Positions 1,319 to 20,200 of a stretch of DNA of 22,466 nt are shown in pieces. The DNA is from an uncultured Roseivirgaceae bacterium (GTDB lineage Bacteria; Bacteroidota; Bacteroidia; Cytophagales; Cyclobacteriaceae): the NCBI GenBank assembly GCA_964537095.1, contig CAZHZR010000023.1, positions 1 to 22,466 on the forward strand. The letters run 5' to 3'. The position numbers and the translations under genes were made by a program. Positions within the stretch are counted from its first letter, which is position 1, and each line of letters begins with the position of its first letter. The notes below the pieces were generated by a model. The model was not told the DNA's origin. It searched no databases and saw nothing but the letters and a program-made list of their open reading frames with translations.

Positions 1319-1460
1319 AAATCTCTACAAACAGAAGCAGGTCCCATAAAAAATCAAATTACGGTAGACCGAGGCAAAAGGTTTTGAAAAAGTTACAATA
1401 AATCAACTTCTTTTACTAAATTTAAGATCGAAAATTACGGGTTCTCCCAGAAAACGCCTA

Positions 1461-2858
1461 GTGACTATTGCTATGATAAAATTCAAACCGAAATACCTGC
1501 AAAAATTTGCCGCTGCTATTTGCCTTTCCTTATTTGCTGGGCTATCTGCCTGTACAAACAAAGAAAAGATTGAAGTATCACTTGATAATCCAGAGATCTT
1601 GCATCAAGCGCAGGAAAAGCTCACGGATGTTATCGTTCATGACATTTTTTCACCGCCCGTATCCAGCAGAATATATGCTTATGCCAACATAGCTGCTTAT
1701 GAAACTTTAATTCATGCACATGAGGAATATACCTCGCTGGCGGGGCAATTGAATGGTCTTGCAGAACTGCCGAAGCCAGACGCCGCGAAAGAAATAGATT
1801 TTTCGCTTGCCAGTTTACATGCCTTTCTAACCGTAAGTAAAGCGTTGATATTTTCAGAATACCAGCTAAAGGAATATCAAGAACACGTTTACGACAGCCT
1901 TTCTGCTTCGATAAAAAAGGATCTTTTTGAAAACTCCGTTGAGTATGGAGGAACAGTCGCCAAAGCAATTCTAGACCATGCTAAAAAAGACAATTATGCT
2001 CAAACAAGGGGCTTAAAATATACAGTCTTAAAAGAACCTGGAGCATGGGCTCCTACCCCCCCTTCCTATATGGATGCTGTCGAACCTTATTGGAACAAGA
2101 TCAGACCTTTTGTGATGGATTCTGCCAGCCAGTTTATGCCTGCGCGGCCTCCTGTTTTTTCTATGCAAGAAGACAGTACATTCTACAAAGATGTATACCA
2201 GGTTTATACAACAACAAAAAATCTAACCGATGAACAGAAGGAAATTGCTTCCTTCTGGGACTGTAACCCATTTGTAATGCACACCGTTGGGCACGTAATG
2301 TATGCCACAAAGAAAATATCTCCCGGTGGCCACTGGTTGGGTATTACCAGTATAGCCAATAAAAAAACCAATGCAAGTTTCATGAAATCGCTGGAGGCCT
2401 ATACACTGGTGGCAATAGCATTGTCTGATGGCTTTGTGAGTTGTTGGGATGAAAAATTTAGAAGCCATGTAATCAGACCAGAAACTATCATTAATTCCCA
2501 TATTGATGACCAATGGCTCCCAATCTTACAAACACCGCCATTTCCGGAATACCCAAGCGGGCACAGCGTCATTTCTGCCGCCGCGGCTGTGGTTCTTACT
2601 GATCTGTTTGGAGATAATTTTAGCTATGTCGACTCTACAGAAGTAAAATATGGACTGCCAGCTCGAGCTTATAATTCGTTTACGGAAGCTGCCGAAGAAG
2701 CAGCAATAAGCAGATTGTACGGGGGTATCCACTTTATGCCTGCAATTAAAAATGGAATGGCAGGAGGAAAACAAGTGGGAGAAAAAGTAGTGGCTGATCT
2801 AAAAACAAGAGTAGAGCCTCAATCTAAAATGATCTCTTCGCACGGAGGTGAAGATTAA
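1461..2858 (+). CDS. PAP2-superfamily lipoprotein resembling vanadium-dependent haloperoxidases or acid phosphatases.
   Basis: The N-terminus has a signal peptide with a lipobox (LFAGLSAC). The three PAP2 signature motifs are present in order: KFRSHVIRPET (KxxxxxxRP), YPSGHS (PSGH) and SRLYGGIHF (SRxxxxxH). The length and spacing fit the bacterial vanadium haloperoxidase-like branch of PAP2. Confidence 0.8.
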   Translation: MTIAMIKFKPKYLQKFAAAICLSLFAGLSACTNKEKIEVSLDNPEILHQAQEKLTDVIVHDIFSPPVSSRIYAYANIAAYETLIHAHEEYTSLAGQLNGLAELPKPDAAKEIDFSLASLHAFLTVSKALIFSEYQLKEYQEHVYDSLSASIKKDLFENSVEYGGTVAKAILDHAKKDNYAQTRGLKYTVLKEPGAWAPTPPSYMDAVEPYWNKIRPFVMDSASQFMPARPPVFSMQEDSTFYKDVYQVYTTTKNLTDEQKEIASFWDCNPFVMHTVGHVMYATKKISPGGHWLGITSIANKKTNASFMKSLEAYTLVAIALSDGFVSCWDEKFRSHVIRPETIINSHIDDQWLPILQTPPFPEYPSGHSVISAAAAVVLTDLFGDNFSYVDSTEVKYGLPARAYNSFTEAAEEAAISRLYGGIHFMPAIKNGMAGGKQVGEKVVADLKTRVEPQSKMISSHGGED

Positions 2859-3051: not shown

Positions 3052-5010
3052 ATGTATCTGCAGCTTTATATCAGATTGTCCGTAATGCTTTCGTTCTTTA
3101 TGATCTTCTGCGCCAAGGTCATTGCTCAGAATTCAATTTACATACATGACAGCGTTCCTGAAAGAATATATTCTTTACAGAATCTAGCCTATTTCGAGGA
3201 TACTACCAGTAGCCTTCAATTTGAACAGGTATCTTCTCAACAATTCGCTAAAAATTTCGTCATCAACCCTGCCTTTTCGAACAAGCAGTACAATAAGTCG
3301 TCCACCTACTGGATAAAACTAGTCATCCGTCATAATCCTGCCTCAAAAAAGTTATGGTTATTGGAATTCTACGACCAGACGATTGATAATATCGATGCGT
3401 ACATTCCTGACGAGGAAGGAGGTTATCAAAGAATCGAGATGGGGGACAAACTCAATTTTGAATCCCGCACATTCATCCACAAAAACTTTGAGCTCATTCT
3501 TCACAATGAAGACAACAAGGTGCTGACGTATTACTTCAAAATTTCGTCACACAACTTTGCGGATATCAGAATAGCCGTTCGTTCCCTTGACAGATTCATT
3601 TTTTATGCGCTTAATGAATACTTTCTGTACGGATTGTTCTATGGGATGATCTTGATATTAAGTTTGTATAATCTCCTTATGTTTTTTGCCATACGAGAAA
3701 TCAAATATATCTACTATATATTTTATCTGTTAAGTGTAGGTATTTATGTAATGTGCGTAGACGGTATCGCATTTCAGTATCTCTGGCCCAACAGCCCGAA
3801 TTGGAATCAAATGGCATATGGTGTGTTCCTGTATTCTGTCATTTTATGGTCTCTTCTGTTCAGCAAAAGATTTCTCAATTCCAAAGCGACGGCACCTTTC
3901 TTGAATAAATTGATCAACTATACCATTATTGTCCGGAGCATCGTATTCTTAACGGGCATATTTTATAATGAGATCTTTGAATATCGGGTGATCGAGCTTT
4001 TCCCCCTTGTTTTGATATTCTTTACCAGCATCTATGTGCTGATCCAGGGGTTTAAACCAGCCAGGTTCTTTGTGATAGCTTACGGGCTTTTGTTTCTTGG
4101 ATTCTTTATAAAAGCTCTGGTTAACGCTGGCTTTCTTCCATTCGGTATTATCCAATATTACAGCCTGCACATAAGCTTCTTGTTGGAAATGCTCTTCCTT
4201 TCCTTCGCCTTGGGAGACCGCGTCAGAATCCTGAAACACAAACGTGACAGAGCTCAACTACGTATCATTCAGCAGCATGAGCTGAATGTAACATTAAAAG
4301 AGCAAATAAATCAGGAGCTGAAACTCAATATGGAGCTTAAAGATAAAGTAAACCGCGAGCTTGAAGAAAAAGTAAAAGAAAGAACAATAGAATTGAAGGG
4401 TAAAAATCAACTTCTGGAAGAATCGAATCTTAAATTGCTACAACAGGCCAAGGAGATTAATCAGATAAATTCTATGCTTGATCTGGACAATTGGAAATTG
4501 AAGAACAATGTTAAGGAGGGCCTGGTAGATCGATTTTTGAATAAAAAACTTGAGTTCGACGAGTTCAAAAAAATATTTCCCGACAAACTGGCTTGTTACA
4601 GGTATTTAGAGAGAATAAAGTGGGAGAAAGGGTTTTCGTGCCGAAAGTGTAACAATGATAAGTATTTTGATGGCATTAAAAAGTTTTCCAGAAGATGCAC
4701 CAAATGTGGGTATAATGAATCCATAACCGCCTACACTATTTTCCATGGAATAAAATTTCCCGTTGAAAAAGCCTTTTACATCACGTATCTGGTCATAAGT
4801 GGAAGTACGGCCTTAACACTTGAAGAAATCTCATCTCTGTTATCCCTAAGAGTAAACACCATCTGGAATTTCAAGAACAAAGTTCTGAACCTCAACAAAA
4901 ATTCTGAAACAAAAAACTCCATCACTGCCGAATGGTACAACCTTCTCGTTGATAAAAAACCGCGGAGAAAATCACATAAACAAAAGCTGGCGAGTCAAAG
5001 TATAGAATAA
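3052..5010 (+). CDS. Membrane one-component sensor/regulator. It combines a 7TMR-DISM extracellular domain, seven TM helices, a coiled coil and a C4 zinc-ribbon plus HTH module of the IS1595-transposase N-terminal type.
   Basis: There is an N-terminal signal peptide. A beta-rich roughly 150-aa extracellular domain (7TMR-DISMED2-like) is followed by seven hydrophobic helices between about aa 185 and 390 (FYALNEYFLYGLFYGMILILSLYNLLMFF ... FLLEMLFLSFALGD). A strongly charged heptad coiled coil spans about aa 395-500. Then comes CRKCNNDKYF...CTKCGYNESITAYTIFHGIKFPVEKAFYITYLVISGSTALTLEEISSLL, which matches the Zn-ribbon + HTH N-terminal module of IS1595/ISXO2 transposases (FxCPKCG...C..C...TxGTIFH..KLPL.KWF.AIYL). 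No DDE domain follows. Confidence 0.75.
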   Translation: MYLQLYIRLSVMLSFFMIFCAKVIAQNSIYIHDSVPERIYSLQNLAYFEDTTSSLQFEQVSSQQFAKNFVINPAFSNKQYNKSSTYWIKLVIRHNPASKKLWLLEFYDQTIDNIDAYIPDEEGGYQRIEMGDKLNFESRTFIHKNFELILHNEDNKVLTYYFKISSHNFADIRIAVRSLDRFIFYALNEYFLYGLFYGMILILSLYNLLMFFAIREIKYIYYIFYLLSVGIYVMCVDGIAFQYLWPNSPNWNQMAYGVFLYSVILWSLLFSKRFLNSKATAPFLNKLINYTIIVRSIVFLTGIFYNEIFEYRVIELFPLVLIFFTSIYVLIQGFKPARFFVIAYGLLFLGFFIKALVNAGFLPFGIIQYYSLHISFLLEMLFLSFALGDRVRILKHKRDRAQLRIIQQHELNVTLKEQINQELKLNMELKDKVNRELEEKVKERTIELKGKNQLLEESNLKLLQQAKEINQINSMLDLDNWKLKNNVKEGLVDRFLNKKLEFDEFKKIFPDKLACYRYLERIKWEKGFSCRKCNNDKYFDGIKKFSRRCTKCGYNESITAYTIFHGIKFPVEKAFYITYLVISGSTALTLEEISSLLSLRVNTIWNFKNKVLNLNKNSETKNSITAEWYNLLVDKKPRRKSHKQKLASQSIE

Positions 5011-5306
5011 ATCAGTAGGACCACTTGCATGTTATCAAAATGGCAAGGGAAATACAAGTTCGCCGATAAAATTCAATTCCTGAAAGAAACAGGTGTTTTT
5101 ATTGCGTTAAATGTTGTCTGATAAAGGTTGAATCAGGATCTGATAATCAGGCATTTTCCCGAATTTATTTAACTAATCTTGGGCAATTGATTTAGATTTG
5201 AAACCAGGTCTAAAATTTAATCTTTAAAGTTTGTGACCGGCAACGATTGTACCCTTTGCTCTTTCAAGAATTACCAAAGGCAGGGATTCTATCCTTATCT
5301 AATTTT

Positions 5307-7277
5307 ATGAAAAGACTTATTCTATTATTTTTTATATTATCGATCTATAGTTGCAAAAGTGACGACCAGGAAGATACAGTTAATGATCTAACCATTGAAT
5401 CTATAAGCGTAGGTTCCACCTATCTCCAACCTGACGGACAGCATCATAATGTTCCCACCAACCTGGCCATTGTGATGAAGTTTAATTTTACCATTGAACG
5501 TTCCTCTGTAGATCAAAACATCAAACTCCTGGATAGCGACGGAAAGCCGATTGGCCTGGCTTTCTCATATTCCAATGAAGATAAAACTATTTCTGCACTT
5601 CCGAGCTCAGAACTTGCGAACAATAGCGAGTACACCTTGCAGGTGGGACCGGTAAAGGCTGCCAATGGAGTTGAGTTCGCAGGAGCAAATTTTTCCTTCC
5701 GCACAGGACAGGCCATGCTTCGGCTGGAGTTAATTCAAATCGATGACCAAAGCTTAAACAGTTCCGGTAGAATCCTGGATGTGAACAGAGATTTTCTGAT
5801 TACAGCTAAGTTTTCAAATGCATTAAACAGCACCAGCTCTTTTGCCGATGTTGTTGCCATTAGCGGTAAAAATGGCAGTATAGACCTGAACTTTGAGCTA
5901 TCAGACAATAACAAGACTTTGCTCATAAGGCCTGCTTCTGAATTGGAAGGATTGTCAAAGTATACACTAGATATCTCTGATGAATTGGGCGGGGATGAAG
6001 AATTTATTTTCGATGGTTTTAGCAAGCAGTTTTATACTGCGGTGGATTCCACTCCAAAGTTTCCAAAGCTTTCCGATGAAGATCTGTTGACGCTGGTACA
6101 GGAGCAGACATTTAGATATTTCTGGGATTTCGCACATCCTTCCAGTGGTTTAGCGAGAGAAAGAAACAGTTCCGGAGACATTGTCACCTCGGGCGGCTCA
6201 GGATTTGGTATCATGACCATACCCGTAGGCATAGAAAGAGGTTTTATTACAAGGAAAGAAGGTGTGGAACGCATTGAAAAAATCGTGGACTTCCTTACTG
6301 CTGCTGAACGGTTTCATGGCGCATGGCCACACTGGCTAGATGGGGTAACTGGAAAAGTAGTACCGTTTAGCACCAAAGACAATGGTGCCGATTTGGTGGA
6401 AACCGCTTTTCTGGTACAAGGTCTACTCACGGTTCGGCAATACCTTCGCGAATCGGATTTACAGGAAGCTTCCATTATTGATAAAATTAACTTTTTATGG
6501 GAAACCGTAGAATGGGACTGGTTTACCAAAGGCGGCGAAAGTATTCTCTACTGGCACTGGTCACCAAACTACGGTTGGGAGATGAACCATCACGTCGCCG
6601 GCTGGGATGAATCACTCATCGTGTATGTACTTGCCGCTTCCTCTCCTACCCACAGCATCGATGCCGAAGTTTACCATCAAGGCTGGGCTGGCAATGGAAA
6701 TATGGCAAATGGTAAAGAATTCTATGATATTACGCTGCCCCTGGGTCCGGATTATGGAGGTCCTATGTTCTTCTCCCACTATTCATTTTTGGGTTTAGAT
6801 CCCAGAAACCTGGAAGACACTTACGCTAAATACTGGGACCAGAATGTGAGTCATGCCCTGATCAACCAGCATCACGCTGTTGCCAACCCAAAAGACTATG
6901 TTGGATATAGTGCGGCCAGTTGGGGCTTTACAGCCAGCGACAATCACAGTGGCTATTCGGCCCACTCACCATCCAATGATCTCGGTGTCATTACTCCAAC
7001 GGCTGCTTTGTCTTCCATGCCTTATACTCCGGAGCTTTCCATGGAGGCGCTTCATTATTTTTATTACGTCATGGGCGATAAGCTTTGGGGCGAATATGGC
7101 TTTTATGATGCTTACAATCCTACCGAAGACTGGTATGCAGACTCTTACCTGGCAATAGACCAAGGCCCCATAATTTTAATGATAGAAAACTACCAGACAG
7201 GGCTGCTTTGGGATTTGTTTATGTCAAATCCTGAAATAAAAAATGGTTTGGAAAAACTGAGTTTTTCGAGCTTTTAA
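5307..7277 (+). CDS. Secreted lipoprotein with two N-terminal SbsA-type Ig-like domains and a DUF3131/GH144-like catalytic domain of the endo-beta-1,2-glucanase family, often annotated as 'glucoamylase family protein'.
   Basis: The ORF track starts at 5247, but the lipoprotein signal MKRLILLFFILSIYSC begins at 5307, so that is the more likely start. Two roughly 100-aa beta-rich repeats end in ...FSFRT and ...FSKQFYT, a pattern typical of SbsA Ig-like domains. The C-terminal 430 aa are clearly paralogous to the next gene (FRYFWDFAHPSSGLARER..SGGSGFGIMTIPVGIERGFITR...ERFHGAWPHWLDGVTGKV...DLVETAFLVQGL...GLDPRNL). The GH144 family assignment is from memory of DUF3131 proteins, not from a search. 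Confidence 0.65.
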   Translation: MKRLILLFFILSIYSCKSDDQEDTVNDLTIESISVGSTYLQPDGQHHNVPTNLAIVMKFNFTIERSSVDQNIKLLDSDGKPIGLAFSYSNEDKTISALPSSELANNSEYTLQVGPVKAANGVEFAGANFSFRTGQAMLRLELIQIDDQSLNSSGRILDVNRDFLITAKFSNALNSTSSFADVVAISGKNGSIDLNFELSDNNKTLLIRPASELEGLSKYTLDISDELGGDEEFIFDGFSKQFYTAVDSTPKFPKLSDEDLLTLVQEQTFRYFWDFAHPSSGLARERNSSGDIVTSGGSGFGIMTIPVGIERGFITRKEGVERIEKIVDFLTAAERFHGAWPHWLDGVTGKVVPFSTKDNGADLVETAFLVQGLLTVRQYLRESDLQEASIIDKINFLWETVEWDWFTKGGESILYWHWSPNYGWEMNHHVAGWDESLIVYVLAASSPTHSIDAEVYHQGWAGNGNMANGKEFYDITLPLGPDYGGPMFFSHYSFLGLDPRNLEDTYAKYWDQNVSHALINQHHAVANPKDYVGYSAASWGFTASDNHSGYSAHSPSNDLGVITPTAALSSMPYTPELSMEALHYFYYVMGDKLWGEYGFYDAYNPTEDWYADSYLAIDQGPIILMIENYQTGLLWDLFMSNPEIKNGLEKLSFSSF

Positions 7278-7344: not shown

Positions 7345-8706
7345 ATGAAAAAACAATTTATGCTCCTTTTTACAATTTGCGCAGGAATGTTTGCCGCCTG
7401 CACCGGTACTAAAACCGAAGAAAGAGGAGAAGAAACAAACATTGCTGTGGGTATTGATAGTATTTCCAATGACTCTTTGCTCAACCTGGTACAATATCAG
7501 ACATTTCAATATTTCTACGAGAATGGAGAACCTACTTCGGGTCTGGGGCGGGAAAGAACGCATATGGATGGAGAATACCCTCAAAATGATCAAAATGTAA
7601 TAACTACTGGCGGTTCTGGATTTGGTATAATGGCACTTATCGTAGGAATTGAAAGAGGCTTTATCACGCGTGATCAAGGTGTAAAACGTTTTCAGCGAAT
7701 TGTCAACTTTTTGGATACCGTAGAACGCTTCCATGGTGTATGGTCGCATTGGATAGATGGTGAAACAGGAAAAGTGAAAGCATTTAGCAAAAAAGATAAT
7801 GGTGGCGATCTGGTCGAAACTGCCTTCCTTGTCCAGGGGCTGATCACGGCGCGAGAATATTTAAAGACCGGGAATGAGGAAGAAAAAGCCCTGGCCAGCA
7901 AAATTGATGGGCTGTGGAGAGGTGTTGAATGGGACTGGTATACCAAAGGAGAGGATGTACTGTATTGGCACTGGTCTCCGGAGTATGAGTGGGAGATGAA
8001 CTTCCCCATTGGAGGCTATAACGAATGCCTGATCACTTATGTATTAGCAGCCTCCTCGCCTACCTATCCCATTGACCCAGCAGTTTACCATAAAGGATGG
8101 GCTAGAAATGATTCAATCATGAACGATACCACTATTTACGGCTATGAAACCGTATTGGACTATTACGAATACAGCGATGAACCGGTTGGTCCATTGTTCT
8201 GGGCGCAATATTCCTTTCTGGGATTGGATCCGCGGAATCTTAAAGATAAATATGCAGATTATTGGAAGCTGGTTCAGAATCATGCGCTGATTAATTATGA
8301 GCATGCTGTACAGAACCCACACAACTACGAAGGATATGGCCAAAAAGTATGGGGCCTCACCGCAAGTTATTCACCCGATGAAGGATACGCCAATCACATG
8401 CCTACACACGACCTTGGCGTCATCTCACCCACTGCCGCCTTATCCTCCTTCCCCTATACACCAGAACAAAGCATGGCATTTTTGCGATTTTTATATACAG
8501 AGGCTGACACCCTGGTAGGAGCTTATGGCCCTTACGATGCTTTTAGCATTGAAAAAAATTGGTACACCCCGCGCTACCTGGCGCTGGATCAGGGAACGAT
8601 TCCTGTCATGATTGAAAACCATCGGACCGGTTTACTTTGGGATCTATTTATGTCGGCCCCTGAGATCGAAACTGGTCTTAAAAAGCTAGGGTTTACATCC
8701 TACTGA
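7345..8706 (+). CDS. DUF3131/GH144-like glycoside hydrolase lipoprotein, a paralogue of the upstream gene.
   Basis: It has a lipoprotein signal, MKKQFMLLFTICAGMFAAC. It shares conserved blocks with the 5307..7277 product along its whole length: YQTFQYFYENGEPTSGLGRER, TGGSGFGIMALIVGIERGFITR, ERFHGVWSHWIDGETGKV, DLVETAFLVQGL, WHWSPEYEWEMN and GLDPRNLKDKYADYW. Confidence 0.7.
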   Translation: MKKQFMLLFTICAGMFAACTGTKTEERGEETNIAVGIDSISNDSLLNLVQYQTFQYFYENGEPTSGLGRERTHMDGEYPQNDQNVITTGGSGFGIMALIVGIERGFITRDQGVKRFQRIVNFLDTVERFHGVWSHWIDGETGKVKAFSKKDNGGDLVETAFLVQGLITAREYLKTGNEEEKALASKIDGLWRGVEWDWYTKGEDVLYWHWSPEYEWEMNFPIGGYNECLITYVLAASSPTYPIDPAVYHKGWARNDSIMNDTTIYGYETVLDYYEYSDEPVGPLFWAQYSFLGLDPRNLKDKYADYWKLVQNHALINYEHAVQNPHNYEGYGQKVWGLTASYSPDEGYANHMPTHDLGVISPTAALSSFPYTPEQSMAFLRFLYTEADTLVGAYGPYDAFSIEKNWYTPRYLALDQGTIPVMIENHRTGLLWDLFMSAPEIETGLKKLGFTSY

Positions 8707-8744: not shown

Positions 8745-10994
8745 ATGAACTACGTAAACCACCTATCGAAAGCCATCTGCTTGGTAATTCTTTCTCTCCT
8801 TTTTTTAATCCCTTCGCAAGCGCAGCCTTCTCAGCAATTTGGTCAGGATGCGGAAATCGAATCAAAGATCGACTCCCTGCTGGCGCTTATGACGCTTGAA
8901 GAGAAAATCGGGCAGCTTACCTTGTACACCAGCGACATCGACGTAACAGGCCCTACCATTCGTGAGGGATATAAAGAAGATATCAGGAAAGGAAATGTTG
9001 GTTCAATTTTTAATGCTTATGGGGCTGATTATACCAGGTCGCTCCAAAAGATGGCCGTTGAAGAAACCCGTTTGAAAATACCACTGCTGTTCGGATATGA
9101 TGTAATCCATGGGCATAAAACAATTTTCCCAATGCCACTGGGAGAGTCTGCAAGTTGGGATCTGGAGGCTATAGAAAGATCGGCACAAATCGCCGCTGCT
9201 GAAGCTTCTGCAGAAGGATTGCACTGGACTTTTGCTCCCATGCTGGATGTAGCGCGTGATCCCAGGTGGGGCAGAGTTGCGGAAGGAGCAGGAGAAGATA
9301 CATATCTTAGCACCAAAATAGCAGTTGCCAGAATAAAAGGCTTTCAAGGTGAGAATTTACGTGATCTCAACACCTTGTTAGCTTGCGCGAAGCACTTTGC
9401 AGCCTATGGAGCCGCACTGGCCGGGAGGGACTATAATACGGTAGACATGTCGGACCGGGTTTTGCGTGAAGTTTACTTTCCACCATTTAAAGCGGCTGTT
9501 GAGGCCGGAGTAGCGACTTTTATGACATCTTTCAATGAAGTAGACGGAGTACCCGCTTCCGGCAGTAAATATTTGATGACCGATGTACTCAAAGAAGAAT
9601 GGGGTTTTGATGGATTTATAGTTACAGATTATACCTCCATCAACGAAATGGTGCCTCATGGCGTGGTGGCCAATGAGAAAGATGCAGGCGAGCTTGCGAT
9701 CAATGCAGGGGTTGACATGGATATGCAGGGGGGTGTTTACCAGGAGCATTTGGCAGATTTAGTGAAGGAGGGAAGAGTCGCCGAATCTCAAATAAATGAA
9801 TCAGTAAGGAGAATTCTAAGGATGAAATACGCGCTCGGCCTTTTTGACGACCCCTACCGCTATTCTGATACAAAGCGTGAAAAGGAAGTTGTGATGAGCA
9901 AAGAGCATTTGGCTGCAGCCAGGGATATTTCCAGAAAATCTATTGTGTTGCTAAAAAATGAAGGCAACACCCTGCCGCTAAAAAAGAACACAAAAACAGT
10001 CGCTGTTATCGGCCCGTTGGCTGACAGCAAGCGTGACATGATAGGTTCCTGGTCGGCCGCCGGAGACTACACAAAAGCCGTTACTTTACTGGAAGGCATC
10101 AAAGCCGCTGTGCCTTCTTCTACCAAAGTGCTTTATGCGAAGGGGGCCAACATCAATGATGATACAACCAAATGGATTGATGAAGCAGTTAAGGTCGCCA
10201 AAAAGGCAGATGTGATAATACTAGCAATAGGCGAAGACGCACAAATGAGTGGAGAGGCAGCCAGTAGATCTAATATAGATCTACCCGGGGTTCAACTGGA
10301 GTTGGCCAAAGCGATGCAAAAAACAGGCAAACCCGTTGTGGCCGTGCTGATGAACGGCAGACCTTTAACCATCACATGGTTAGATGAAAACATCCCATCT
10401 ATCCTTGAAACCTGGTTTTTAGGAACCCAGGCAGGACACGCTATCGCAGATGTTATATTCGGAGACTACAATCCCTCCGGTAAATTACCTGTTACCTTTC
10501 CTCGCAGCGTAGGTCAAGTTCCTATTTTTTACAATAATAAAAATACTGGCAGACCCATGTCTGATGAAAAATACACATCAAAATATCTGGATATTTCAAA
10601 TGAGCCATTATATCCTTTTGGTTACGGCTTGAGCTACGCTAATTTTACCTATAGTAATCTAGTGGCAGGCAAATCCGAGTATAAAATGGGGGAACCCATA
10701 GAAGTAGCCGTGACTGTTTCGAATAGTGGCAAAGTAGCAGGGGAAGAAGTGGTGCAACTTTACGTCAGAGATCTTGTAGGAAGTGTAACGCGACCTGTTA
10801 AGGAGTTAAAAGGATTTCAGAAAATTAAACTGGAACCAGGCGCATCGCAACAAGTGCGGTTTACCCTCACTGCAAAAGATCTTGCCTTCTACACCAGAAA
10901 TATGGATTTCGCAGCCGAGCCCGGCGCTTTCAAAGTATATGTGGGAACAAATTCCAGAGATGTATTGGAAGCTGATTTTGAATTAAGAGAATAA
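8745..10994 (+). CDS. bglX: Glycoside hydrolase family 3 beta-glucosidase, BglX-like and periplasmic.
   Basis: It has a signal peptide. The GH3 N-domain blocks are present: KHFAAYGAALAGRDY, SFNEVDGVPASGSKYLMTDVLKEEWGFDGFIVTDY (the catalytic Asp lies in the VTDY nucleophile motif), the GH3 C-terminal alpha/beta sandwich and a fibronectin-like C-terminus. The 749-aa length is typical of BglX-type enzymes. Confidence 0.9.
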   Translation: MNYVNHLSKAICLVILSLLFLIPSQAQPSQQFGQDAEIESKIDSLLALMTLEEKIGQLTLYTSDIDVTGPTIREGYKEDIRKGNVGSIFNAYGADYTRSLQKMAVEETRLKIPLLFGYDVIHGHKTIFPMPLGESASWDLEAIERSAQIAAAEASAEGLHWTFAPMLDVARDPRWGRVAEGAGEDTYLSTKIAVARIKGFQGENLRDLNTLLACAKHFAAYGAALAGRDYNTVDMSDRVLREVYFPPFKAAVEAGVATFMTSFNEVDGVPASGSKYLMTDVLKEEWGFDGFIVTDYTSINEMVPHGVVANEKDAGELAINAGVDMDMQGGVYQEHLADLVKEGRVAESQINESVRRILRMKYALGLFDDPYRYSDTKREKEVVMSKEHLAAARDISRKSIVLLKNEGNTLPLKKNTKTVAVIGPLADSKRDMIGSWSAAGDYTKAVTLLEGIKAAVPSSTKVLYAKGANINDDTTKWIDEAVKVAKKADVIILAIGEDAQMSGEAASRSNIDLPGVQLELAKAMQKTGKPVVAVLMNGRPLTITWLDENIPSILETWFLGTQAGHAIADVIFGDYNPSGKLPVTFPRSVGQVPIFYNNKNTGRPMSDEKYTSKYLDISNEPLYPFGYGLSYANFTYSNLVAGKSEYKMGEPIEVAVTVSNSGKVAGEEVVQLYVRDLVGSVTRPVKELKGFQKIKLEPGASQQVRFTLTAKDLAFYTRNMDFAAEPGAFKVYVGTNSRDVLEADFELRE

Positions 10995-13021: not shown

Positions 13022-13417
13022 ATGAACCATTATTACGACAAAGTTAAAGAATACTTGCTGGAGGCGGGCTGCACTATAAAACATGAAAATGAAGGCGAAG
13101 GCCTTTTTGTAGTAGACTATGAAAATATGGGCATCAGCAATCTGGTAATAGGATGTGCAGATCCGATCTTAATAGTTGAACAATTCATCTTTGAAATCAA
13201 CGAAGAATGTGTAGAAGTTTTCAAAAGCCTTCTACAAAAAAACAGAGAAATCATTGCCGGTGCCTTTGTAATAGACGATTCTGGAGAGAAGGTGCTTTAT
13301 AGAAATACGCTTATGCTTGAGAACCTCGATCTGAACGAACTAGAAGGCACATTTAACGCGTTGGGGCTAATGCTTAGCGAGTATTCTGAAGACCTTATCC
13401 GCTTCGCCAGCAAGTAA
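13022..13417 (+). CDS. Small cytoplasmic YbjN-like protein with a type III secretion chaperone-like fold. It is the first gene of the pspA cluster.
   Basis: It is a 131-aa acidic protein with an alpha/beta pattern (LFVVDYENMGISNLVIGCADPILIVEQFIFEI ... AGAFVIDDSGEKVLYRNTLMLENL). This resembles YbjN / putative sensory-transduction-regulator family members, which are often encoded beside PspA. The family call is tentative. Gene reality is supported by spacing and codon usage. Confidence 0.5.
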   Translation: MNHYYDKVKEYLLEAGCTIKHENEGEGLFVVDYENMGISNLVIGCADPILIVEQFIFEINEECVEVFKSLLQKNREIIAGAFVIDDSGEKVLYRNTLMLENLDLNELEGTFNALGLMLSEYSEDLIRFASK

Positions 13418-13495
13418 TTAGTCGCAGGACATAAAATAATTCTCAGATAAATTTTAAATTTTTTAATATTTTTATTAAACTTAACCTTTGAAGAC

Positions 13496-14227
13496 ATGAA
13501 CAACATATTTAAAAGACTATTTAAAATAGGACAAGCCGAGGCAAATTCGGCGGTAGACCAGCTTGAAAACCCCATCAAATTGACCGAACAAGGAATCCGG
13601 GACATGAAGGAAAATCTCGACAAGAGCCTTCAATCACTGGCGCAGGTAAAAGCGTTGTCTATCAGAGCAAGGAACGATTTCGAAACTTATAACGACGCTG
13701 CCCAAGACTATGAAAGAAAGGCTTTGATGCTTTTAAAAAAGGCACAGGCGGGTGAAATGAAGTCCGAAGAAGCTGACCGGCTGGCAAGTGAGGCTTTGGT
13801 AAAAAAAGAAGCCAGTACCAGCCAAGCCAACCGCTCATTGGCAGAAAAGGAGAAGTTCGACAAAAGCATATCTGAACTCGATCAGAACATAAAAACGATC
13901 AAAAGCACCATCAGCAAGTGGGAAAATGAGCTCAAGACACTCAAGGCACGGGTTAAGGTAAGCGATGCCACCAAAAGGCTCAACAAGCAACTTGCTCAAA
14001 TTGATAGCAGCAGTACAGTCTCCATGTTAGAACGCATGAAAGACAAGGTGGCGGAAGAGGAAGCACTGGCACAATCCTACGCGGAAATAGCCAATGAAAG
14101 CAGAAGCATTGACGAAGAAATAGACAAGGCTTTAGAAAACACATCGGCATCTGCCAAAACATCCAATGAGCTTGCTGCTTTAAAAGCAAAACTTGGGATC
14201 AATACGGCTTCTGAAGAAAAAGAGTAA
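13496..14227 (+). CDS. pspA: PspA/IM30 (Vipp1) family protein, phage-shock protein A-like and in the ESCRT-III superfamily.
   Basis: The N-terminus MNNIFKRLFKIGQAEANSAVDQLENPIKLTEQGIRDMKENLDKS aligns with E. coli PspA [40 protein letters not shown]. The protein is entirely helical coiled coil, about 243 aa, with a C-terminal LAALKAKL that matches PspA LAQLKAKM. Confidence 0.85.
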   Translation: MNNIFKRLFKIGQAEANSAVDQLENPIKLTEQGIRDMKENLDKSLQSLAQVKALSIRARNDFETYNDAAQDYERKALMLLKKAQAGEMKSEEADRLASEALVKKEASTSQANRSLAEKEKFDKSISELDQNIKTIKSTISKWENELKTLKARVKVSDATKRLNKQLAQIDSSSTVSMLERMKDKVAEEEALAQSYAEIANESRSIDEEIDKALENTSASAKTSNELAALKAKLGINTASEEKE

Positions 14228-14270
14228 GCACATAAAGTTTCAACATTCACAATAAACCTAAAAGATAGCG

Positions 14271-14912
14271 ATGGAAGATTTATTAAAAGCAATAGTGTGG
14301 GGAGGCAATATTGTACCAACAGCACTACTGATCTTTATATTGACCTACTGGCTTATCGTGTTGATTGGTTTTATTGATATCGACAGCTTTGATATAGATA
14401 TTGATCTGGATGTTGAAACTGATGTTAACGGAGCAGGCTCAGTAGCCTGGCTCAACCATGTACTCTATTTCTTTAATCTCGGCCAGGTTCCGCTAATGCT
14501 TTTCCTGAGTTTCGTGGCCATACCTATGTGGTTCCTTGCAATCATCGCAACGGAATACCTGGTCTTCAATTCGGTGTTTTTGAGCTACCTCCTACTGATT
14601 CCGAATTTTATAATTAGCCTCTTTATCGCTAAAGTATTTACCCAGCCATTCGTGAAGTTGTTCACTGCACTCGAAAACCATGTTGATGACAACACGGAAG
14701 TAATCGGAAAAATTTGTACAGTGATCCTCAATACAACTGACGAAAAAATGGGCCAGGCCAGAGTAGAAGGCAGTGGGTCTGTAGTGCTACTCAACATTAA
14801 AACCAGAAAAGGCACTGTGCTAAATAAAGGGGAAACGGGCCTGGTGATCGACTATGTAAAAGAAAAAAGCTACTATATCATAGAGCCCTACGAAATTCAG
14901 GAATCAGTATAA
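14271..14912 (+). CDS. Inner-membrane protein of the YqiJ/NfeD type: N-terminal TM helices plus a C-terminal OB-fold. It is a flotillin partner.
   Basis: It is 213 aa, about the size of E. coli YqiJ (209 aa). Three or four hydrophobic helices are present (VPTALLIFILTYWLIVLIGFI, VPLMLFLSFVAIPMWFLAIIA, SYLLLIPNFIISLFIA). The C-terminal beta-rich NfeD-like OB-fold segment is GKICTVILNTTDEKMGQARVEGSGSVVLLNIKTRKGTVLNKGETGLVIDYVKEKSYYIIEPYE. It sits immediately upstream of a flotillin gene, the conserved yqiJ-yqiK / yuaF-floT arrangement. Confidence 0.65.
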   Translation: MEDLLKAIVWGGNIVPTALLIFILTYWLIVLIGFIDIDSFDIDIDLDVETDVNGAGSVAWLNHVLYFFNLGQVPLMLFLSFVAIPMWFLAIIATEYLVFNSVFLSYLLLIPNFIISLFIAKVFTQPFVKLFTALENHVDDNTEVIGKICTVILNTTDEKMGQARVEGSGSVVLLNIKTRKGTVLNKGETGLVIDYVKEKSYYIIEPYEIQESV

Positions 14913-15041
14913 GACAGTCACCTCCAAATATCAGCTATTTCTGCCTTGGAAGACCAGAGGTGAGACCATATCGTCTACCGGATTCATTGGGCATTCCATT
15001 GCAGATACATTCATAAAGTTTTCAACTAAAAATTAATATTC

Positions 15042-17174
15042 ATGATTCAACAAGCATCCCTTATAGTAATTATCGTGGGCTCTATCGTATTGATAGCGCT
15101 GCTGATCCTTATTTCCCGTATGTGGCACAAAGCCTCGCAGGGACAAGCGCTCGTCCGGACCGGATTAGGGGGCACCAAAGTAAGCTTTTCAGGCACCCTT
15201 GTAGTACCCGTAATCCACAGGTTAGAGGAAATGGACATCACCGTAAAAACAATTGTCATCTCCCGTACCGGAAAGGATGGCTTGGTTTGCAAAGACAATA
15301 TGCGCGCTGATATTAAGGTAACCTTTTTTATCCGCGTAAATAAAAGCATAGAAGACGTGAAGAAGGTATCCGAGTCCATTGGATGTTCCAGAGCCTCCAA
15401 TCACGAACAACTGGAAGTATTGTTTGATGCCAAGTTTTCTGAAGCCTTGAAGACAGTCGGCAAGCATTTTGAATTTGTGGAACTGTATAACAGCAGGGAC
15501 GACTTCAAGAGAGAGATCCTGCAAATTACGGGCACCGATCTGAACGGGTATATCCTGGATGACTGCGCGATTGACTATCTGGAGCAAACCAGTCTTGACC
15601 ACATGAATGAGAATAATATTCTTGACTCAGAAGGTATTAAAAAGATCATTGAACTTACCGCCAAGCAGAAAATGGCATCTAACCTGATTGAGCGTGAGAA
15701 GCAAAAAACGCTTAAAAAGCAGGATGTTGAAGCCAGAGAAGTAATTCTGTCACTTGAAAAACAATTGGCAGAAAGTGAAGAGAAACAACGCAGAGAAATT
15801 GAAAACATCAAGTCAAGAGAAGCCGCAGAAATCGAAAAAGTACGTTCTGAAGAAAGACAGAAATCTGAGCAGGCAAGAATCATCTCTGATGAACAGATTC
15901 AGGTGGCGGAACAAAATAAAGACCGGCAGGTGCTTGTAGCGCAGAGAAACAAAGAAAAGACAGATGCTATTGAGCTTGAAAGAGTAGTGCAGGCGAGAGA
16001 TCTGGAAGCCAATGAAAGGGAACGATTGGTGTCACTGGCACAGATAGAAAAAGAAAAGGCGCTGGAAATAGAGAAGAAAAATATTCAGGAGGTAATAAGA
16101 GAACGAGTAGTAGTAGAAAAAGCTACGGTAGAAGAGCAGGAAAGAATCAAAGATACCGTAGCCCATGCGGAAGCCGAAAGGTCGAAGAAAGTAGCAATTA
16201 TCAACGCGGAGCAGGAAGCGGAACAAGCCCTTGTAAAGGAAATTAAAGCCGCAGAAGCTGCTAATGATGCTGCTTTATTTCGTGCAAAACAAGCACTTGT
16301 AGATGCAGAAGCGGAAAAAAATAGCGCCGGTCTACGAGCAGAGGCCATAAAAATAATGGCAGACGCCCAAGCCGCGAAAGAAGCCGCGTTGGGTATAAGC
16401 GAGGCACAGGTAATGGAAGCAAAGGCAGCCGCTTTAACAAAACAAGGAGAGGCAGAAGCAAACGTGATCGAAGAAGCCGCTGAAGCCGAAGCAAAATCAA
16501 TTAGAATTAAAGGAATAGCACAGGCAGATGCCAATGCTAAACAAGGTGAAGCGGAAGCCATTGTAATCCGCGCGAAAGCCGAAGCAGAAGAATTGAAAGG
16601 ACAAGCGGAAGCAAGAGTGATGGAGCAGAAATTCCTGGCAGAAGCAAAAGGTATCGGAGAGAAAGCAGCAGCAATGAGCAAACTGGACGGACCTGGAAAA
16701 GACCATGAAGAATACAAACTGAGGCTTTCGAAAGAAAAGGAAATTGAACTGGCCCAAATTGATATACAGAAGGTTATAGCAGACGCTCAGGCACAGGTGA
16801 TTGGTGAAGCTTTAAAAGCTGCAAATATCGACATTATCGGAGGGGAGACTATGTTCTTCGAACAGATCATGGGCTCTATTACAAAAGGTAAAGCCGTAGA
16901 CGGTATGATTGACAACAGCAAAGCGCTGCTGGACGTTAAGAATACTTTCTTCAGTCCTAATGGCGGTTCAGATTTTAAATCGCAGTTAAAAGGCTTTATG
17001 GACAAATTCGGATTTTCTCCTGAAGACATCCGAAATCTGACTATTTCTGCCTTGCTTTTAAAGATGATGAACGGCGCCGACAGCCATCAGACTCGCTCTA
17101 GTATACAGCAGTTGAATGACCTGGCAAAATCCATCGGGGTGTCAGACAAAACGCTGGATGCCATCGGCATGTAA
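15042..17174 (+). CDS. Flotillin (SPFH/Band-7 domain; FloT/YqiK-like) with an unusually long E/A/K-rich coiled coil and a C-terminal extension.
   Basis: An N-terminal TM anchor (LIVIIVGSIVLIALLILIS) is followed by an SPFH domain (QALVRTGLGGTKVSFSGTLVVPVIHRLEEMDITVKTIVISRTG...MRADIKVTFFIRVNKSIEDVKK...FVELYNSRDDFKREI). The roughly 300-aa EA-repeat coiled coil is the flotillin hallmark. At 710 aa it is longer than the usual 500-550 aa of bacterial flotillins. Confidence 0.9.
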   Translation: MIQQASLIVIIVGSIVLIALLILISRMWHKASQGQALVRTGLGGTKVSFSGTLVVPVIHRLEEMDITVKTIVISRTGKDGLVCKDNMRADIKVTFFIRVNKSIEDVKKVSESIGCSRASNHEQLEVLFDAKFSEALKTVGKHFEFVELYNSRDDFKREILQITGTDLNGYILDDCAIDYLEQTSLDHMNENNILDSEGIKKIIELTAKQKMASNLIEREKQKTLKKQDVEAREVILSLEKQLAESEEKQRREIENIKSREAAEIEKVRSEERQKSEQARIISDEQIQVAEQNKDRQVLVAQRNKEKTDAIELERVVQARDLEANERERLVSLAQIEKEKALEIEKKNIQEVIRERVVVEKATVEEQERIKDTVAHAEAERSKKVAIINAEQEAEQALVKEIKAAEAANDAALFRAKQALVDAEAEKNSAGLRAEAIKIMADAQAAKEAALGISEAQVMEAKAAALTKQGEAEANVIEEAAEAEAKSIRIKGIAQADANAKQGEAEAIVIRAKAEAEELKGQAEARVMEQKFLAEAKGIGEKAAAMSKLDGPGKDHEEYKLRLSKEKEIELAQIDIQKVIADAQAQVIGEALKAANIDIIGGETMFFEQIMGSITKGKAVDGMIDNSKALLDVKNTFFSPNGGSDFKSQLKGFMDKFGFSPEDIRNLTISALLLKMMNGADSHQTRSSIQQLNDLAKSIGVSDKTLDAIGM

Positions 17175-17191
17175 ATCTTCGTAAGCATAGA

Positions 17192-17230
17192 ACAGGATTT
17201 GGTCTCCAGACCATATCCTGTATTTTTTCT
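17192..17230 (+). terminator. Strong Rho-independent terminator, a GC-containing hairpin followed by a T-run, 18 nt downstream of the flotillin stop codon.
   Basis: The stem is ACAGGATTTGGTCT (17192-17205) paired with AGACCATATCCTGT (17208-17221), 13 bp with one mismatch. It is followed directly by ATTTTTTCTT (17222-17231). Confidence 0.7.
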
Positions 17231-17255
17231 TAAAATTACTTATTAATACCCCTTT

Positions 17256-20200
17256 ATGGAGAATGAAGAAGCAATAGTACCTGAAGAAAACATGATGGAG
17301 GCAGGTAGTTATGAGATACTGCGTAACCGCCTCACCAAGTCGGGCGCAGACCTCAGTGCGAGGATAAAAAAGCTGAATGAACTGCGCAAAGAAGTCTTCG
17401 GCACAATTGATACCAAGCTGGTAACCACCGATAGAATAAACACGGAACATAATTGTGTGCCTCAGGATATGATCCCCGTCGGCCATTTCTTCATTTTTGG
17501 CTACAATGTACACCTGGGCCTGAAATCCCAGATCGAACTCCCCGACGTTTTCAGCATCTATAGATACAAAGATCATGGATTTCATCAGGAAGATTATACG
17601 TTGATCAACGACGAAACATTCATAGACGACTTCCAAAAACTCTATAAATATTATAAAGACACCCAATTCATAAAATTCTCAAAAGCCGGAAATAATCTGT
17701 ATATGGTATTCCGGATCGGAAAAAGCCTTACGGACATCAAAGCTTTCAAATGGACTTTTTCTGGAGGTAAACTTACTTATATTGATAACAGAAGTGAGCA
17801 TGAATATCGATTTCCAGATCAATATGCTTTTCGCTGGAAACAAGCTACCCGCGACCAGCACAGGCAGGGTGCTCATCCTCACATCAGTATTGAAGACAGA
17901 CTTTTTGTAGAGACAATAGGTGGCGACCTTACCATTAAAATTGAAGACAATACCGAGCAAGGCAAGGGTATTTATACCGAATCTGTAGAAAATAAAGACC
18001 AAACACTGGACGACGCTGATATAAGGTATGCTGTGTTAGGGAATTTGGTTTTATTAAAAATTAAACCTTATCTGGAAGAAAACCATCGACATTTGGTTTT
18101 TAACGCTAAAATCAAAGAGGTAAAAAGAGTTGATGCCATTAAAGATGCGTGTGTATTACTACCAGATGATCAGGGGATTTTGTTTCCAAACGGTTATTAC
18201 CTTCAAACCGGTGAATACAAGCTGTTCGAATTGCAAAATGAAAACATGCTATTCGAAAAAAGAATAGATAGTCCTAATGGCGAAGACTTTCTCTATGTTT
18301 TCTACAACAAACAACAAAGCTTTTACTTGTTGCTCCCGTACAATATCATATCGCAAAAAATTGACACTCCTATTTCATGCCACGGTTTTTCAATATTCGA
18401 GAACGGCGAGATGTGTTTTTTCAAAGGGGAAAATGACCCAAGTATGCACCATGCCATCCAGGTATGGCAGACGCCCTTTGTGGGGCCAAACTTTCAACTT
18501 CATCAATCGCACGATTCCTATTTGTTCAAAGTAGGAAACAAGGAAATTGTAAGAGCCATGGCGGAAGCCAACGAAATTTTCACCCTCATCCATAAAGATG
18601 ACTCCTATTCCGGGTTGTACCACGACCTTGTAAAAGCATCTACAACAATTCTGGACACTTATCATTGGCTGAAAAAAGATGAGACTTTCAGGCTTTCAGA
18701 ACCCCTGCAGGAAATACGAGAGACAGCCAATGCTGCCATCGATGAATTTGAGAAAGTATCAAATATCAAAAACAATACGGAACAACGAGTACTGGAAGTA
18801 TTGGGTGAAGCCGACGAGTTGATCCGAAAAATAAAGATAAAAAAGGCAGAGCATATCTTAGATTATGTTGACAATCTATCCTCAATCAGAAAAATTAGCG
18901 GGGAAGTTATTTCTTTAAAAGATCTAAGATATGTGGATGCAAAAAAAATTGAGGCATATGAGGATGAGCTGGCAAAATTCAGCATCAATGTTTCTACCAA
19001 CTGTGTCAATTTTCTTTTAAAGGACAACGCACTTGTTCCTTATAATAAAAAGGTTGATGAGCTTGGCGGTGCCGTGGAAAAAGCAGGCAAGCTGCTTGAT
19101 ATTACAAAGCTAGAGGAAGAAGCTGCTCAAATTGCCGCTGAGCTAGAGATGCTGATTGAGATCGTTAGCAATCTGAAGATCAATGATGCAACTGAAACCA
19201 CCAGGATCATCGACAAAATATCTGCAATATACGCGAGCTTTAATCAAATTAAAGCCAACATCAGCAGGCGGCGCAAAGAACTGCTGACAATTGAAGGGAA
19301 AGCAGAATTCAACGCACAACTGAAGCTGGTTGACCAAAGTATCATCAATTATATCGATATCAGTAGCACTCCTGAAAAATGCGATGAGTACCTGACCAGG
19401 ATAATGGTACAACTCGAAGAGCTGGAGGGCAAGTTTTCTGAATTTGATGAATATGTAAATAAAGTTGGTGAGAAACGTGAAGAGGTCTATAACGCCTTTG
19501 AATCCCGTAAAATCAATCTGATAGAGGCCAGAAACAAAAGAGCAAATAACTTACAGGAGGCGGCTGAACGTATTTTAAAAGCTGTGAAGAGCAGAATTTC
19601 ACGGTTTAATGAGGTGACCGAGATCAATGGTTATTTTGCGTCAGACCTGATGATTGAAAAGCTGAAAAACATTGTTAAAGAGCTTCAGGATTTGGGAGAC
19701 AATGTCAAGGGTGACGACATCCAAAGCAAGCTCAAGACTGTACGGGAAGATACGGTAAGGCAGTTGAAAGACAAGTCGGAACTTTTCGTCGCCGGCGAGA
19801 ATATTATAAAATTCGGTCCCTTTCAATTCTCTGTAAATACGCAGCCTCTGGAACTTTCCATGGTGAATAAAAATGGCAGGTTATATTTTCATTTAGGAGG
19901 AACTAATTTCTTCGAAGAAGTTGTGAACGAAGAGATATTGCACGCAAAACCAGTGTGGGAACAGATATTAATCTCTGAAAACCCTGATGTTTATCGCGCT
20001 GAGTTTCTAGCTTATGTTATTTTTACTGAAGCAAAAGAAAATCCGGTCGACAGTACGACACTGTTTGAATTATATAAACTTCCCTTTGAAAAGCTACTAA
20101 ACCTGGTGCAGGAAAAAATGGCTACGCGCTTTAGTGAAGGTTATGTAAAAGGGGTTCATGATCTGGATGCAGCGCGAATCCTGCAGGCATTGATTGCCAT

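Follow-up and report, generated by a model that had tools for sequence, protein, structure and literature searches.

A membrane receptor ending in an IS1595-type zinc ribbon and helix-turn-helix module as a probable one-component regulator of beta-1,2-glucan utilisation genes in Cytophagales

What does a transposase-type module do at the end of a membrane receptor that is encoded beside glucan-degrading enzymes? The question is raised by one gene in a 22,466-nt stretch of DNA (the window; contig CAZHZR010000023.1, positions 1 to 22,466, forward strand) from an uncultured Roseivirgaceae bacterium. The gene encodes a receptor of the 7TMR-DISM type with a zinc ribbon and a helix-turn-helix (HTH) at its C-terminus, and it is followed by genes for two proteins of glycoside hydrolase (GH) family GH144 and one of GH3. 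According to the sequence comparisons, structure models and neighbourhood surveys given below, the receptor is probably a transmembrane one-component sensor-regulator of these adjacent beta-1,2-glucan utilisation genes.

The C-terminal module was matched by two transposase profiles. PF12760 (Zn_ribbon_IS1595, Pfam) matched residues 514-554 at 26.3 bits against a gathering score of 25.4, which is marginal by itself, and NF033547 (IS1595 family transposase, NCBIfam) matched residues 568-621, the HTH part, with its model positions 3-57 of 215 (E 2.7e-4). Given these marginal profile matches, the likeness to transposases was tested by direct sequence comparison. With residues 500-630 as the query, annotated IS1595-family transposases were matched by tblastn in a plasmid collection, the best one being from Chondrinema litorale of the Cytophagales (38.6% identity over 101 residues, E 2e-17) and the next ones being proteobacterial (33-36% identity). 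By BLASTP, the module and the C. litorale transposase were 36% identical over 124 residues (E 4e-29), and the alignment covered receptor residues ~496-619 and transposase residues 3-126, i.e. the whole region ahead of the DDE domain, which begins near transposase residue 131. The C. litorale reference is a genuine insertion sequence (IS), with a DDE_Tnp_IS1595 match (E 4.6e-19) and 25-nt terminal inverted repeats (88%). The four cysteine ligands of the zinc ribbon are invariant across 31 homologues, in whose alignment the module belongs to the best-conserved portions of the receptor. Homology of the receptor C-terminus to the N-terminal zinc ribbon and HTH of IS1595 transposases, as first proposed in a reading of the letters and open reading frames (ORFs) without database searches (the sequence-only reading), was confirmed at the level of sequence; the profile match, whose absence that reading had named as a ground for its own rejection, was found above the gathering score. 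The module was probably acquired from the N-terminal part of a transposase of this family.

The rest of the chain was assigned by using Pfam, NCBIfam and a full-length AlphaFold2 (AF2) model made with the alignment of 31 homologues (predicted local distance difference test, pLDDT, 79.4). In the model, a signal helix and a beta-sandwich are followed by seven membrane helices (residue 179 to about 390). The last of these runs on into a very long helix, after which comes a second long one, and the module then folds as three short strands at 538-557 and a unit of three helices at 571-616; the remaining ranges are listed in Table 1. Because of the N-terminal signal peptide and the seven membrane helices, the C-terminus is predicted to be cytoplasmic, and this topology places a periplasmic sensor, a membrane anchor and a cytoplasmic HTH on one chain. 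The order of sensor, membrane bundle, linker, ribbon and HTH given by the sequence-only reading was thereby upheld, together with its three expected Pfam domains (7TMR-DISMED2, 7TMR-DISM_7TM and Zn_ribbon_IS1595, all matched) and the GH144 (twice) and GH3 genes downstream. In the window receptor, neither Pfam nor NCBIfam gave a match to a histidine kinase, GGDEF/EAL, PP2C or cyclase module, or detected a chain of histidine kinase, receiver and AraC HTH, and Pfam gave no match to Trans_reg_C or a related domain or to Reg_prop beta-propellers with Y_Y_Y.

Relatives were collected from one genome per GTDB species, which yielded 499 loci encoding a relative; the window protein itself had no exact entry in the assembly collection. 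For the neighbourhood counts, 80 of these loci were searched by tblastn with the window proteins, and 52 of them had the required downstream DNA of at least 8.5 kb. The relatives among the loci listed were mostly from Cytophagales (Roseivirgaceae, Chryseolinea, Ohtaekwangia, Chryseosolibacter, Fulvivirga, Marivirga and Shiella), and the closest one among them, 83% identical and from an uncultured Roseivirgaceae metagenome-assembled genome, has the gene order of the window. GH144 was found downstream on the same strand in 51 of the 52 loci, usually 6.1-6.4 kb past the receptor stop codon, and this linkage holds across genera at ~55% protein identity; the exception is an orthologous locus (L064) without GH144 downstream. 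The usual locus order was regulator-SusC-SusD-Laminin_G-GH144-GH144-GH3. In Pseudochryseolinea flava, the gap is occupied by SusC (1011 aa), SusD (501 aa) and a lectin-like Laminin_G_3 protein, followed by GH144, GH144 and GH3. The usual order is therefore that of a canonical polysaccharide utilisation locus (PUL) with the receptor gene in the regulator position. In a lineage whose module is about 50% identical (P0134), the receptor gene is divergent from SusC-SusD-LamG-GH144-GH3, and the GH144 linkage therefore survives a change of orientation. The survey called for by the sequence-only reading, namely whether the receptor is recurrently beside glycoside hydrolases, was thus answered positively by the 51 of 52 loci and by the P0134 lineage. 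The proposed link to the beta-glucan genes was supported as a linkage, from which the regulation itself is predicted; the position directly upstream of GH144/GH3 was correct for the window and not for the usual orthologous locus, in which SusC and SusD lie in between.

This linkage bears on the possibility that the receptor binds DNA as a global regulator or an autoregulator and has nothing to do with the adjacent GH144/GH3 genes, their adjacency being accidental. Although the window without the usual SusC/SusD and the locus L064 without GH144 downstream would be in keeping with it, an accidental neighbourhood is hard to reconcile with a linkage kept in nearly all loci across genera, with its retention by an independent lineage in the opposite orientation, with the different carbohydrate locus beside each paralogue or with the conserved motif upstream of SusC (both described below), and was considered quite improbable.

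As a separate observation, a divergent GH144-like ORF, 28-33% identical to the GH144 proteins of the window, was present just upstream of the regulator in ~14 orthologous loci (L020, L033, L039, L050, L052, L061, L062, L065-L067, L077, L079, L080 and L082). The gap to the regulator was ~30-230 bp, mostly under 130 bp, and about 1.8 kb in L039. This ORF may belong to a newer beta-1,2-glucanase family.

Could the gene instead be a damaged mobile element, i.e. a recent IS1595 insertion into, or an assembly chimera with, a 7TMR-DISM sensor gene? The name of the Pfam domain and its marginal score would be compatible with such an event, which is nevertheless at odds with the conservation of the receptor. 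Among the 120 best homologues listed, which were 50-83% identical, the full-length architecture was kept; their lengths were 435-678 aa, with nearly all of them at 618-661 aa, and most had the same three Pfam domains. Synteny was conserved among the 499 loci, the module being strongly conserved and the reading frame continuous with a conserved linker. Instead of the varied location and multiple copies of a mobile element, the orthologues keep their neighbours in 51 of 52 loci. In the 22-kb window, no DDE domain was detected by Pfam or by tblastn with the DDE half of the C. litorale transposase, whose best match (E 0.44) fell within the PAP2 gene. Terminal inverted repeats of a credible kind were likewise lacking around the module: the only inverted repeats there were AT-rich, 17-23 nt long and complementary to 74-84%, and their arms lay either in conserved coding sequence or in intergenic DNA. 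An insertion or a chimera is already refuted by the conservation and retains a vanishing probability, and the view of the sequence-only reading, which was that of a domesticated module with neither a DDE domain nor flanking inverted repeats and not of a mobile element, was sustained on each of these counts.

The distribution of the module beyond these orthologues was determined by phmmer with the 131-residue module against 1.84 billion cluster representatives (50%-identity clusters). There were 4051 matches at E<=1e-3, of which 767 reached E<=1e-10 and 88 reached E<=1e-30. In almost all of the 150 best matches, the module was at the C-terminus of proteins of ~600 aa; many shorter entries among the same 150, again with a C-terminal module, may be gene fragments. 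Six of the 150 were proteins of 980-1070 aa in which Reg_prop beta-propellers and Y_Y_Y stand directly before the zinc ribbon module, and no kinase, receiver or AraC domain was found in these six; one cluster member is from Flexithrix dorotheae. The module ends both 7TMR-DISM and Reg_prop/Y_Y_Y sensors and is therefore a shared output domain. Both fusions with informative contigs lie beside SusC/SusD, in the orders SusC-SusD-ASPIC-GH43-[gene] (L088) and [gene]-SusC-SusD. The contigs of three other fusions (P0199, P0244 and P0204) were too short for neighbours to be seen, and that of P0248 begins at the gene and covers its downstream side. The 7TMR paralogues had as neighbours a ribokinase, a sugar transporter and SusC/D in Flammeovirga, GH3/GH43/GH97 in Aureibacter, and SusC/D with GH3/GH16 and SusC/D with GH3/GH5/GH2 in Persicobacter. 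In a metagenome contig (L096, 12051-21815), a 7TMR-zinc-ribbon paralogue is directly 5' of two pairs of PSCyt1/PSCyt2/PSD1 (with CBM_6 or Laminin_G_3) and DUF1501 genes, with an additional PSCyt1/DUF2231 gene between the pairs, which is a putative carbohydrate locus of a non-SusC/D type. All informative contexts of paralogues and fusions were carbohydrate-related. Separately, 14 module matches were obtained by tblastn on the unannotated 1.58-Mb replicon CP012852.1 of Persicobacter sp. JZB09, which suggests either a large expansion of receptor paralogues or many IS1595 copies.

A real signalling receptor might also act indirectly, with the module docking a partner, such as RNA, part of a sigma/anti-sigma system or a soluble transcription factor, rather than DNA. 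Zinc ribbons often make protein or RNA contacts, and we know of no experimental DNA binding for the IS1595 N-terminal domain family. A Foldseek search of the C-terminal model against the PDB gave nothing at E<=0.001 and no significant DNA-binding homologue, and no structure of an IS1595 N-terminus surfaced in either PDB search. On the other side, the helical part of the module was closest to DNA-bound homeodomains in the PDB structure search, and in transposases the region ahead of the DDE domain is the sole candidate for recognition of the element ends. No conserved partner regulator gene accompanies the receptor in the orthologous loci, and the module fills the position held by the AraC HTH of hybrid two-component system (HTCS) proteins on the same type of sensor. 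Docking of a partner was accordingly regarded as unlikely, though less so than an accidental neighbourhood, and direct DNA contact by the module was preferred.

The 7-transmembrane (7-TM) bundle and the module are joined by a helical linker of ~105 residues, of which residues 429-462 (LKDKVNRELEEKVKERTIELK...) bear the 'ERT' signature of an S-helix. In the alignment of 31 homologues, R444 and T445 were invariant, E443 was kept in at least 90% of the sequences and an LDLDNW motif was also invariant. This signature defines the S-helix, a switch made of a parallel coiled coil that sits between a sensor and an output domain, the latter being occasionally an HTH domain (PMC1592074). The linker of the window lineage has an insertion of 14 residues, exactly two heptads, which fits a coiled coil whose phase has to be kept. 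The long coiled coil of the sequence-only reading therefore holds as far as the helical linker is concerned, and falls short in that the S-helix signature is present as well.

In 63 loci, the intergenic stretch that separates the regulator from the gene following it was searched for a candidate operator. The heptamer TGTTTTT was found in 61 of them, against a maximum of 14 after shuffling; 50 loci had two copies, spaced by 65 or 66 bp in 47 of the 50, and in most loci the second copy was 131-166 bp upstream of the SusC start. The motif core is TGTTTTTtTt..G..AAAA (TGTTTTT-N5-G-N2-AAAA), and site 2 extends to gaaA.CGtTTGAAATCAATGTTTTTTTt..G.aAAAA. A degenerate third site of the TGATTTTT type follows ~66 bp after site 2 in the orthologous loci. 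A position weight matrix (PWM) of the 20-nt core gave 101 matches in 17.9 kb of regulator-downstream intergenic DNA and 5 in the other 1.19 Mb (both strands); because the matrix derives from sites in these very regions, the count of 101 is circular, and the real tests are the rarity elsewhere and the independent locus L095. In this divergent locus, the region upstream of SusC has about six copies, oriented with SusC rather than with the regulator. In the window, the single strong site was conserved against the 83%-identical relative (L003) amid diverged flanks, and so were two more islands, one at 5192-5204 (Table 1) and the other, AAyGATTGTA at 5241-5250, overlapping TTG 5247. The paralogue loci gave only weak single PWM matches (L084, L086 and L090). 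We infer that TGTTTTT-N5-G-N2-AAAA would be the binding site of the module. Two other explanations of the motif were rejected: a terminator of the regulator gene is excluded by the SusC-wise orientation in L095, and a derivation from IS ends is unsupported, the inverted repeats of the Chondrinema IS1595 element (AATAGGGTTACCCAT...) being unrelated to it.

The same repeats could be promoter, UP-element, DNA-bending or 5'-leader elements bound by RNA polymerase or another factor. The runs of T and A are typical of bent or UP-like DNA, and more conserved blocks lie downstream: cTTGAC-N8-10-AAATT(C/T)A precedes SusC, ~88-110 bp downstream of site 2 (e.g. L070, L017 and L081). The -7 promoter element of Bacteroidota, TAnnTTTG, was sought at a constant distance beyond site 2 on its downstream side and was not found. 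Against such elements, the motif is nearly absent from other promoters, as given by the five matches in the flanking 1.19 Mb, and the two copies at a fixed spacing of 65-66 bp and the multiple copies of L095 resemble an array of factor-binding sites. A role other than that of an operator is a serious contender, held to be somewhat the less probable of the two; it touches the operator assignment only and leaves the regulator model intact.

From these results, the following mechanism is proposed. The DISMED2 beta-sandwich would bind a glycan breakdown product, most plausibly beta-1,2-gluco-oligosaccharides freed by GH144, and the 7-TM bundle would relay the change to a dimeric cytoplasmic helix holding the S-helix switch, by which the geometry of the C-terminal pair of zinc ribbon and HTH would be shifted. 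This pair, ~100-105 helical residues off the membrane, would contact DNA directly while the protein stays membrane-anchored, and would bind the repeated TGTTTTT-N5-G-N2-AAAA sites 5' of the first gene of the locus (SusC mostly; GH144 in the window). Binding would switch on transcription of the locus with no phosphorelay involved, and the IS1595-derived module would have become a portable output domain for glycan sensors of Cytophagales. In its broadest form, the proposal is that the IS1595-derived zinc ribbon and HTH define an unrecognised major class of PUL regulators in Cytophagales, i.e. a portable, phosphorelay-free output on at least two unrelated glycan sensors, read out through an S-helix and binding TGTTTTT-type arrays ~66 bp apart; the chances of this broad form were put at even.

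Besides the circular count and the non-operator explanation of the repeats, several points weigh against this mechanism. No SusC/SusD lies between the regulator and GH144 in the window lineage, and the window has only one strong copy of the motif. The ligand, a beta-1,2-gluco-oligosaccharide, was taken from the neighbouring genes and is a guess from gene context. The direction from transposase to receptor rests on parsimony, because IS1595 transposases span many phyla and the receptor fusions were found here in Cytophagales. For the IS1595 N-terminus itself, the wording of Pfam is that it 'could bind DNA'.

The coordinates of the features are given in Table 1.

Table 1. Features of the receptor gene and its downstream neighbours in the window.
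Feature	Position	Strand	Basis
7TMR-DISM receptor with C-terminal IS1595-type zinc ribbon and HTH, 652 aa	3052..5010 (including stop)	+	ORF, Pfam, NCBIfam, AlphaFold2
Signal peptide or anchor, residues 1-26 (...AKVIA/QN)	3052..3129	+	Sequence; AF2 helix 2-20
7TMR-DISMED2 periplasmic sensor domain, beta-sandwich, residues 44-174	3181..3573	+	PF07696 E 2.5e-28; AF2 strands 37-178
7TMR-DISM_7TM seven-helix membrane bundle, residues 189-390	3616..4221	+	PF07695 E 1.5e-44; AF2
Cytoplasmic helical linker, residues 391-500	4222..4551	+	Alignments; AF2 helices 365-444, 456-496
IS1595-type zinc ribbon, residues 514-554, ligands C530, C533, C549, C552	4591..4713	+	PF12760; BLASTP; invariant Cys; AF2 strands
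Three-helix HTH after the ribbon, residues 568-621; homologue of the pre-DDE HTH in IS1595 transposases	4753..4914	+	
Candidate operator core TGTTTTTATTGCGTTAAATG	5094..5113	+	PWM 23.7 vs site median 23.2; sole strong match in window; predicted binding
Second conserved intergenic island TTAGATTTGAAAC	5192..5204	+	Resembles CGTTTGAAATC flank of site 2 elsewhere
GH144-family (PF10091) putative endo-beta-1,2-glucanase with Big_5 domains	5247..7277	+	Pfam
GH144-family protein no. 2	7345..8706	+	Pfam (PF10091)
GH3 beta-glucosidase	8745..10994	+	Pfam

The first GH144 gene probably starts at ATG 5307 rather than at TTG 5247 called by the ORF lister, because ATG 5307 yields MKRLILLFFILSIYSC, which reads as a typical lipoprotein signal and includes the cysteine of a lipobox. 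The enzyme is therefore likely to be a lipoprotein located at the cell surface or in the periplasm. According to Pfam, the receptor gene is preceded by genes for an FG-GAP protein and a PAP2/vanadium-haloperoxidase-like protein, and the GH3 gene is followed by one for an endonuclease/exonuclease/phosphatase-family protein. Large FG-GAP/UnbV_ASPIC proteins together with a PAP2/vanadium-haloperoxidase-like protein were seen upstream of the regulator both in the window (116-2858) and in L001 (140-8399), and the ASPIC-type protein in the PUL of L088 echoes those of the window lineage. Between the glucan genes and a PspA cluster lies a LexA/CI-like repressor gene (HTH_3 and Peptidase_S24; 12010-12834, minus strand). 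The cluster (13022-22190, plus strand) is co-directional and consists of CesT_Tir_1/YbjN-like (13022..13417), PspA/IM30 (13496..14227), a small membrane protein with a weak YqiJ_N match (14271..14912), a 710-aa protein without Pfam match (15042..17174) and a 1644-aa protein with DUF3686, DUF7902 and an AAA ATPase (17256..22190). It looks like a PspA-associated giant-ATPase module for membrane stress or defence.

PUL regulation is known almost wholly from gut Bacteroides, through HTCS, SusR and pairs of extracytoplasmic function (ECF) sigma and anti-sigma factors. If the proposed regulator model is true, soil and marine Cytophagales use a simpler, kinase-free device, which would explain the control of many PULs. 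It would also offer a handle on the sensing of beta-1,2-glucan, a poorly known glycan signal, since both ligand and operator are predicted and an orthologue is present in cultured species such as Pseudochryseolinea flava, Ohtaekwangia kribbensis, Chryseolinea lacunae, Fulvivirga imtechensis and Shiella aurantiaca. The domestication of a bacterial transposase into a transcription factor would be documented in an order in which the donor IS family is active to this day, and the receptors would be among the clearest bacterial cases in which a transposase DNA-binding domain was domesticated into a cellular transcription factor family. The homologues are labelled '7TM diverse intracellular signaling domain-containing protein' by NCBI and, many of them, 'sensor histidine kinase LadS' by JGI; the latter appears to be a misannotation, as judged from the window protein, in which no kinase domain was detected. 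Mobile-element annotation takes PF12760 as a marker of transposases (PMC13639185), and pipelines of this kind would wrongly count the receptors as transposases. In the literature search, no work joining 7TMR-DISM with polysaccharide utilisation was found, an early passing mention in the founding 7TMR-DISM work being possible, and none of the publications naming the PF12760 domain concerns receptors. The receptor family is apparently large and undescribed.

The receptor was finally compared with the known systems it resembles. With the canonical 7TMR-DISM receptors (LadS, RetS, SagS and RgsP), it shares the DISMED2 and 7-TM modules, but those receptors signal through a histidine kinase or GGDEF/EAL, neither of which it has. 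DISMED2 is considered to resemble carbohydrate-binding domains, and glucose-6-phosphate is a signal to which SagS responds (PMC8544897). With the IS1595 transposases (ISXO2-like), the likeness lies between the C-terminal ~125 residues of the receptor and the complete N-terminal zinc ribbon and HTH of the transposases, the nearest of which in the plasmid collection were from the same order, Cytophagales. The receptor differs in having no DDE domain, inverted repeats or signs of mobility, and its module is C-terminal and syntenic.

HTCS proteins are hybrid two-component PUL sensor-regulators of Bacteroidota, each on one inner-membrane polypeptide (PMC11253607). The receptor resembles them as a single inner-membrane chain with a periplasmic glycan sensor, a cytoplasmic DNA-binding end and a gene beside SusC/SusD and glycoside hydrolases, and sister proteins with the same module carry the HTCS-type Reg_prop and Y_Y_Y sensor; adjacency to SusC/SusD and carbohydrate-active enzymes was found in orthologues and paralogues, and to the enzymes only in the window. 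Unlike HTCS proteins, the receptor has no histidine kinase, receiver or AraC HTH, and therefore no phosphorelay, its sensor being DISMED2 with 7 TM helices and its output the zinc ribbon and HTH.

The membrane-anchored one-component design is shared with ChiS, ToxR, CadC and TcpP, with DNA binding by the window receptor being predicted. ToxR and CadC are anchored in the membrane and contact DNA directly through their cytoplasmic domain. In the ChiS family, 7TMR-DISM is fused to another DNA-binding domain (PMC8092284). The receptor gave no match to Trans_reg_C or a related domain in Pfam, a collection that may have no model of the ChiS-type domain, and the DNA-binding domain that it carries is the IS1595-type one. 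It differs from these regulators in the fold and origin of the DNA-binding domain, in phylum, in its ~105-residue S-helix linker and in its association with PULs. Membrane-bound one-component regulators as such are an established kind, and the novelty lies in the DNA-binding domain and its derivation from a transposase, in the phylum and in the regular occurrence beside PULs.

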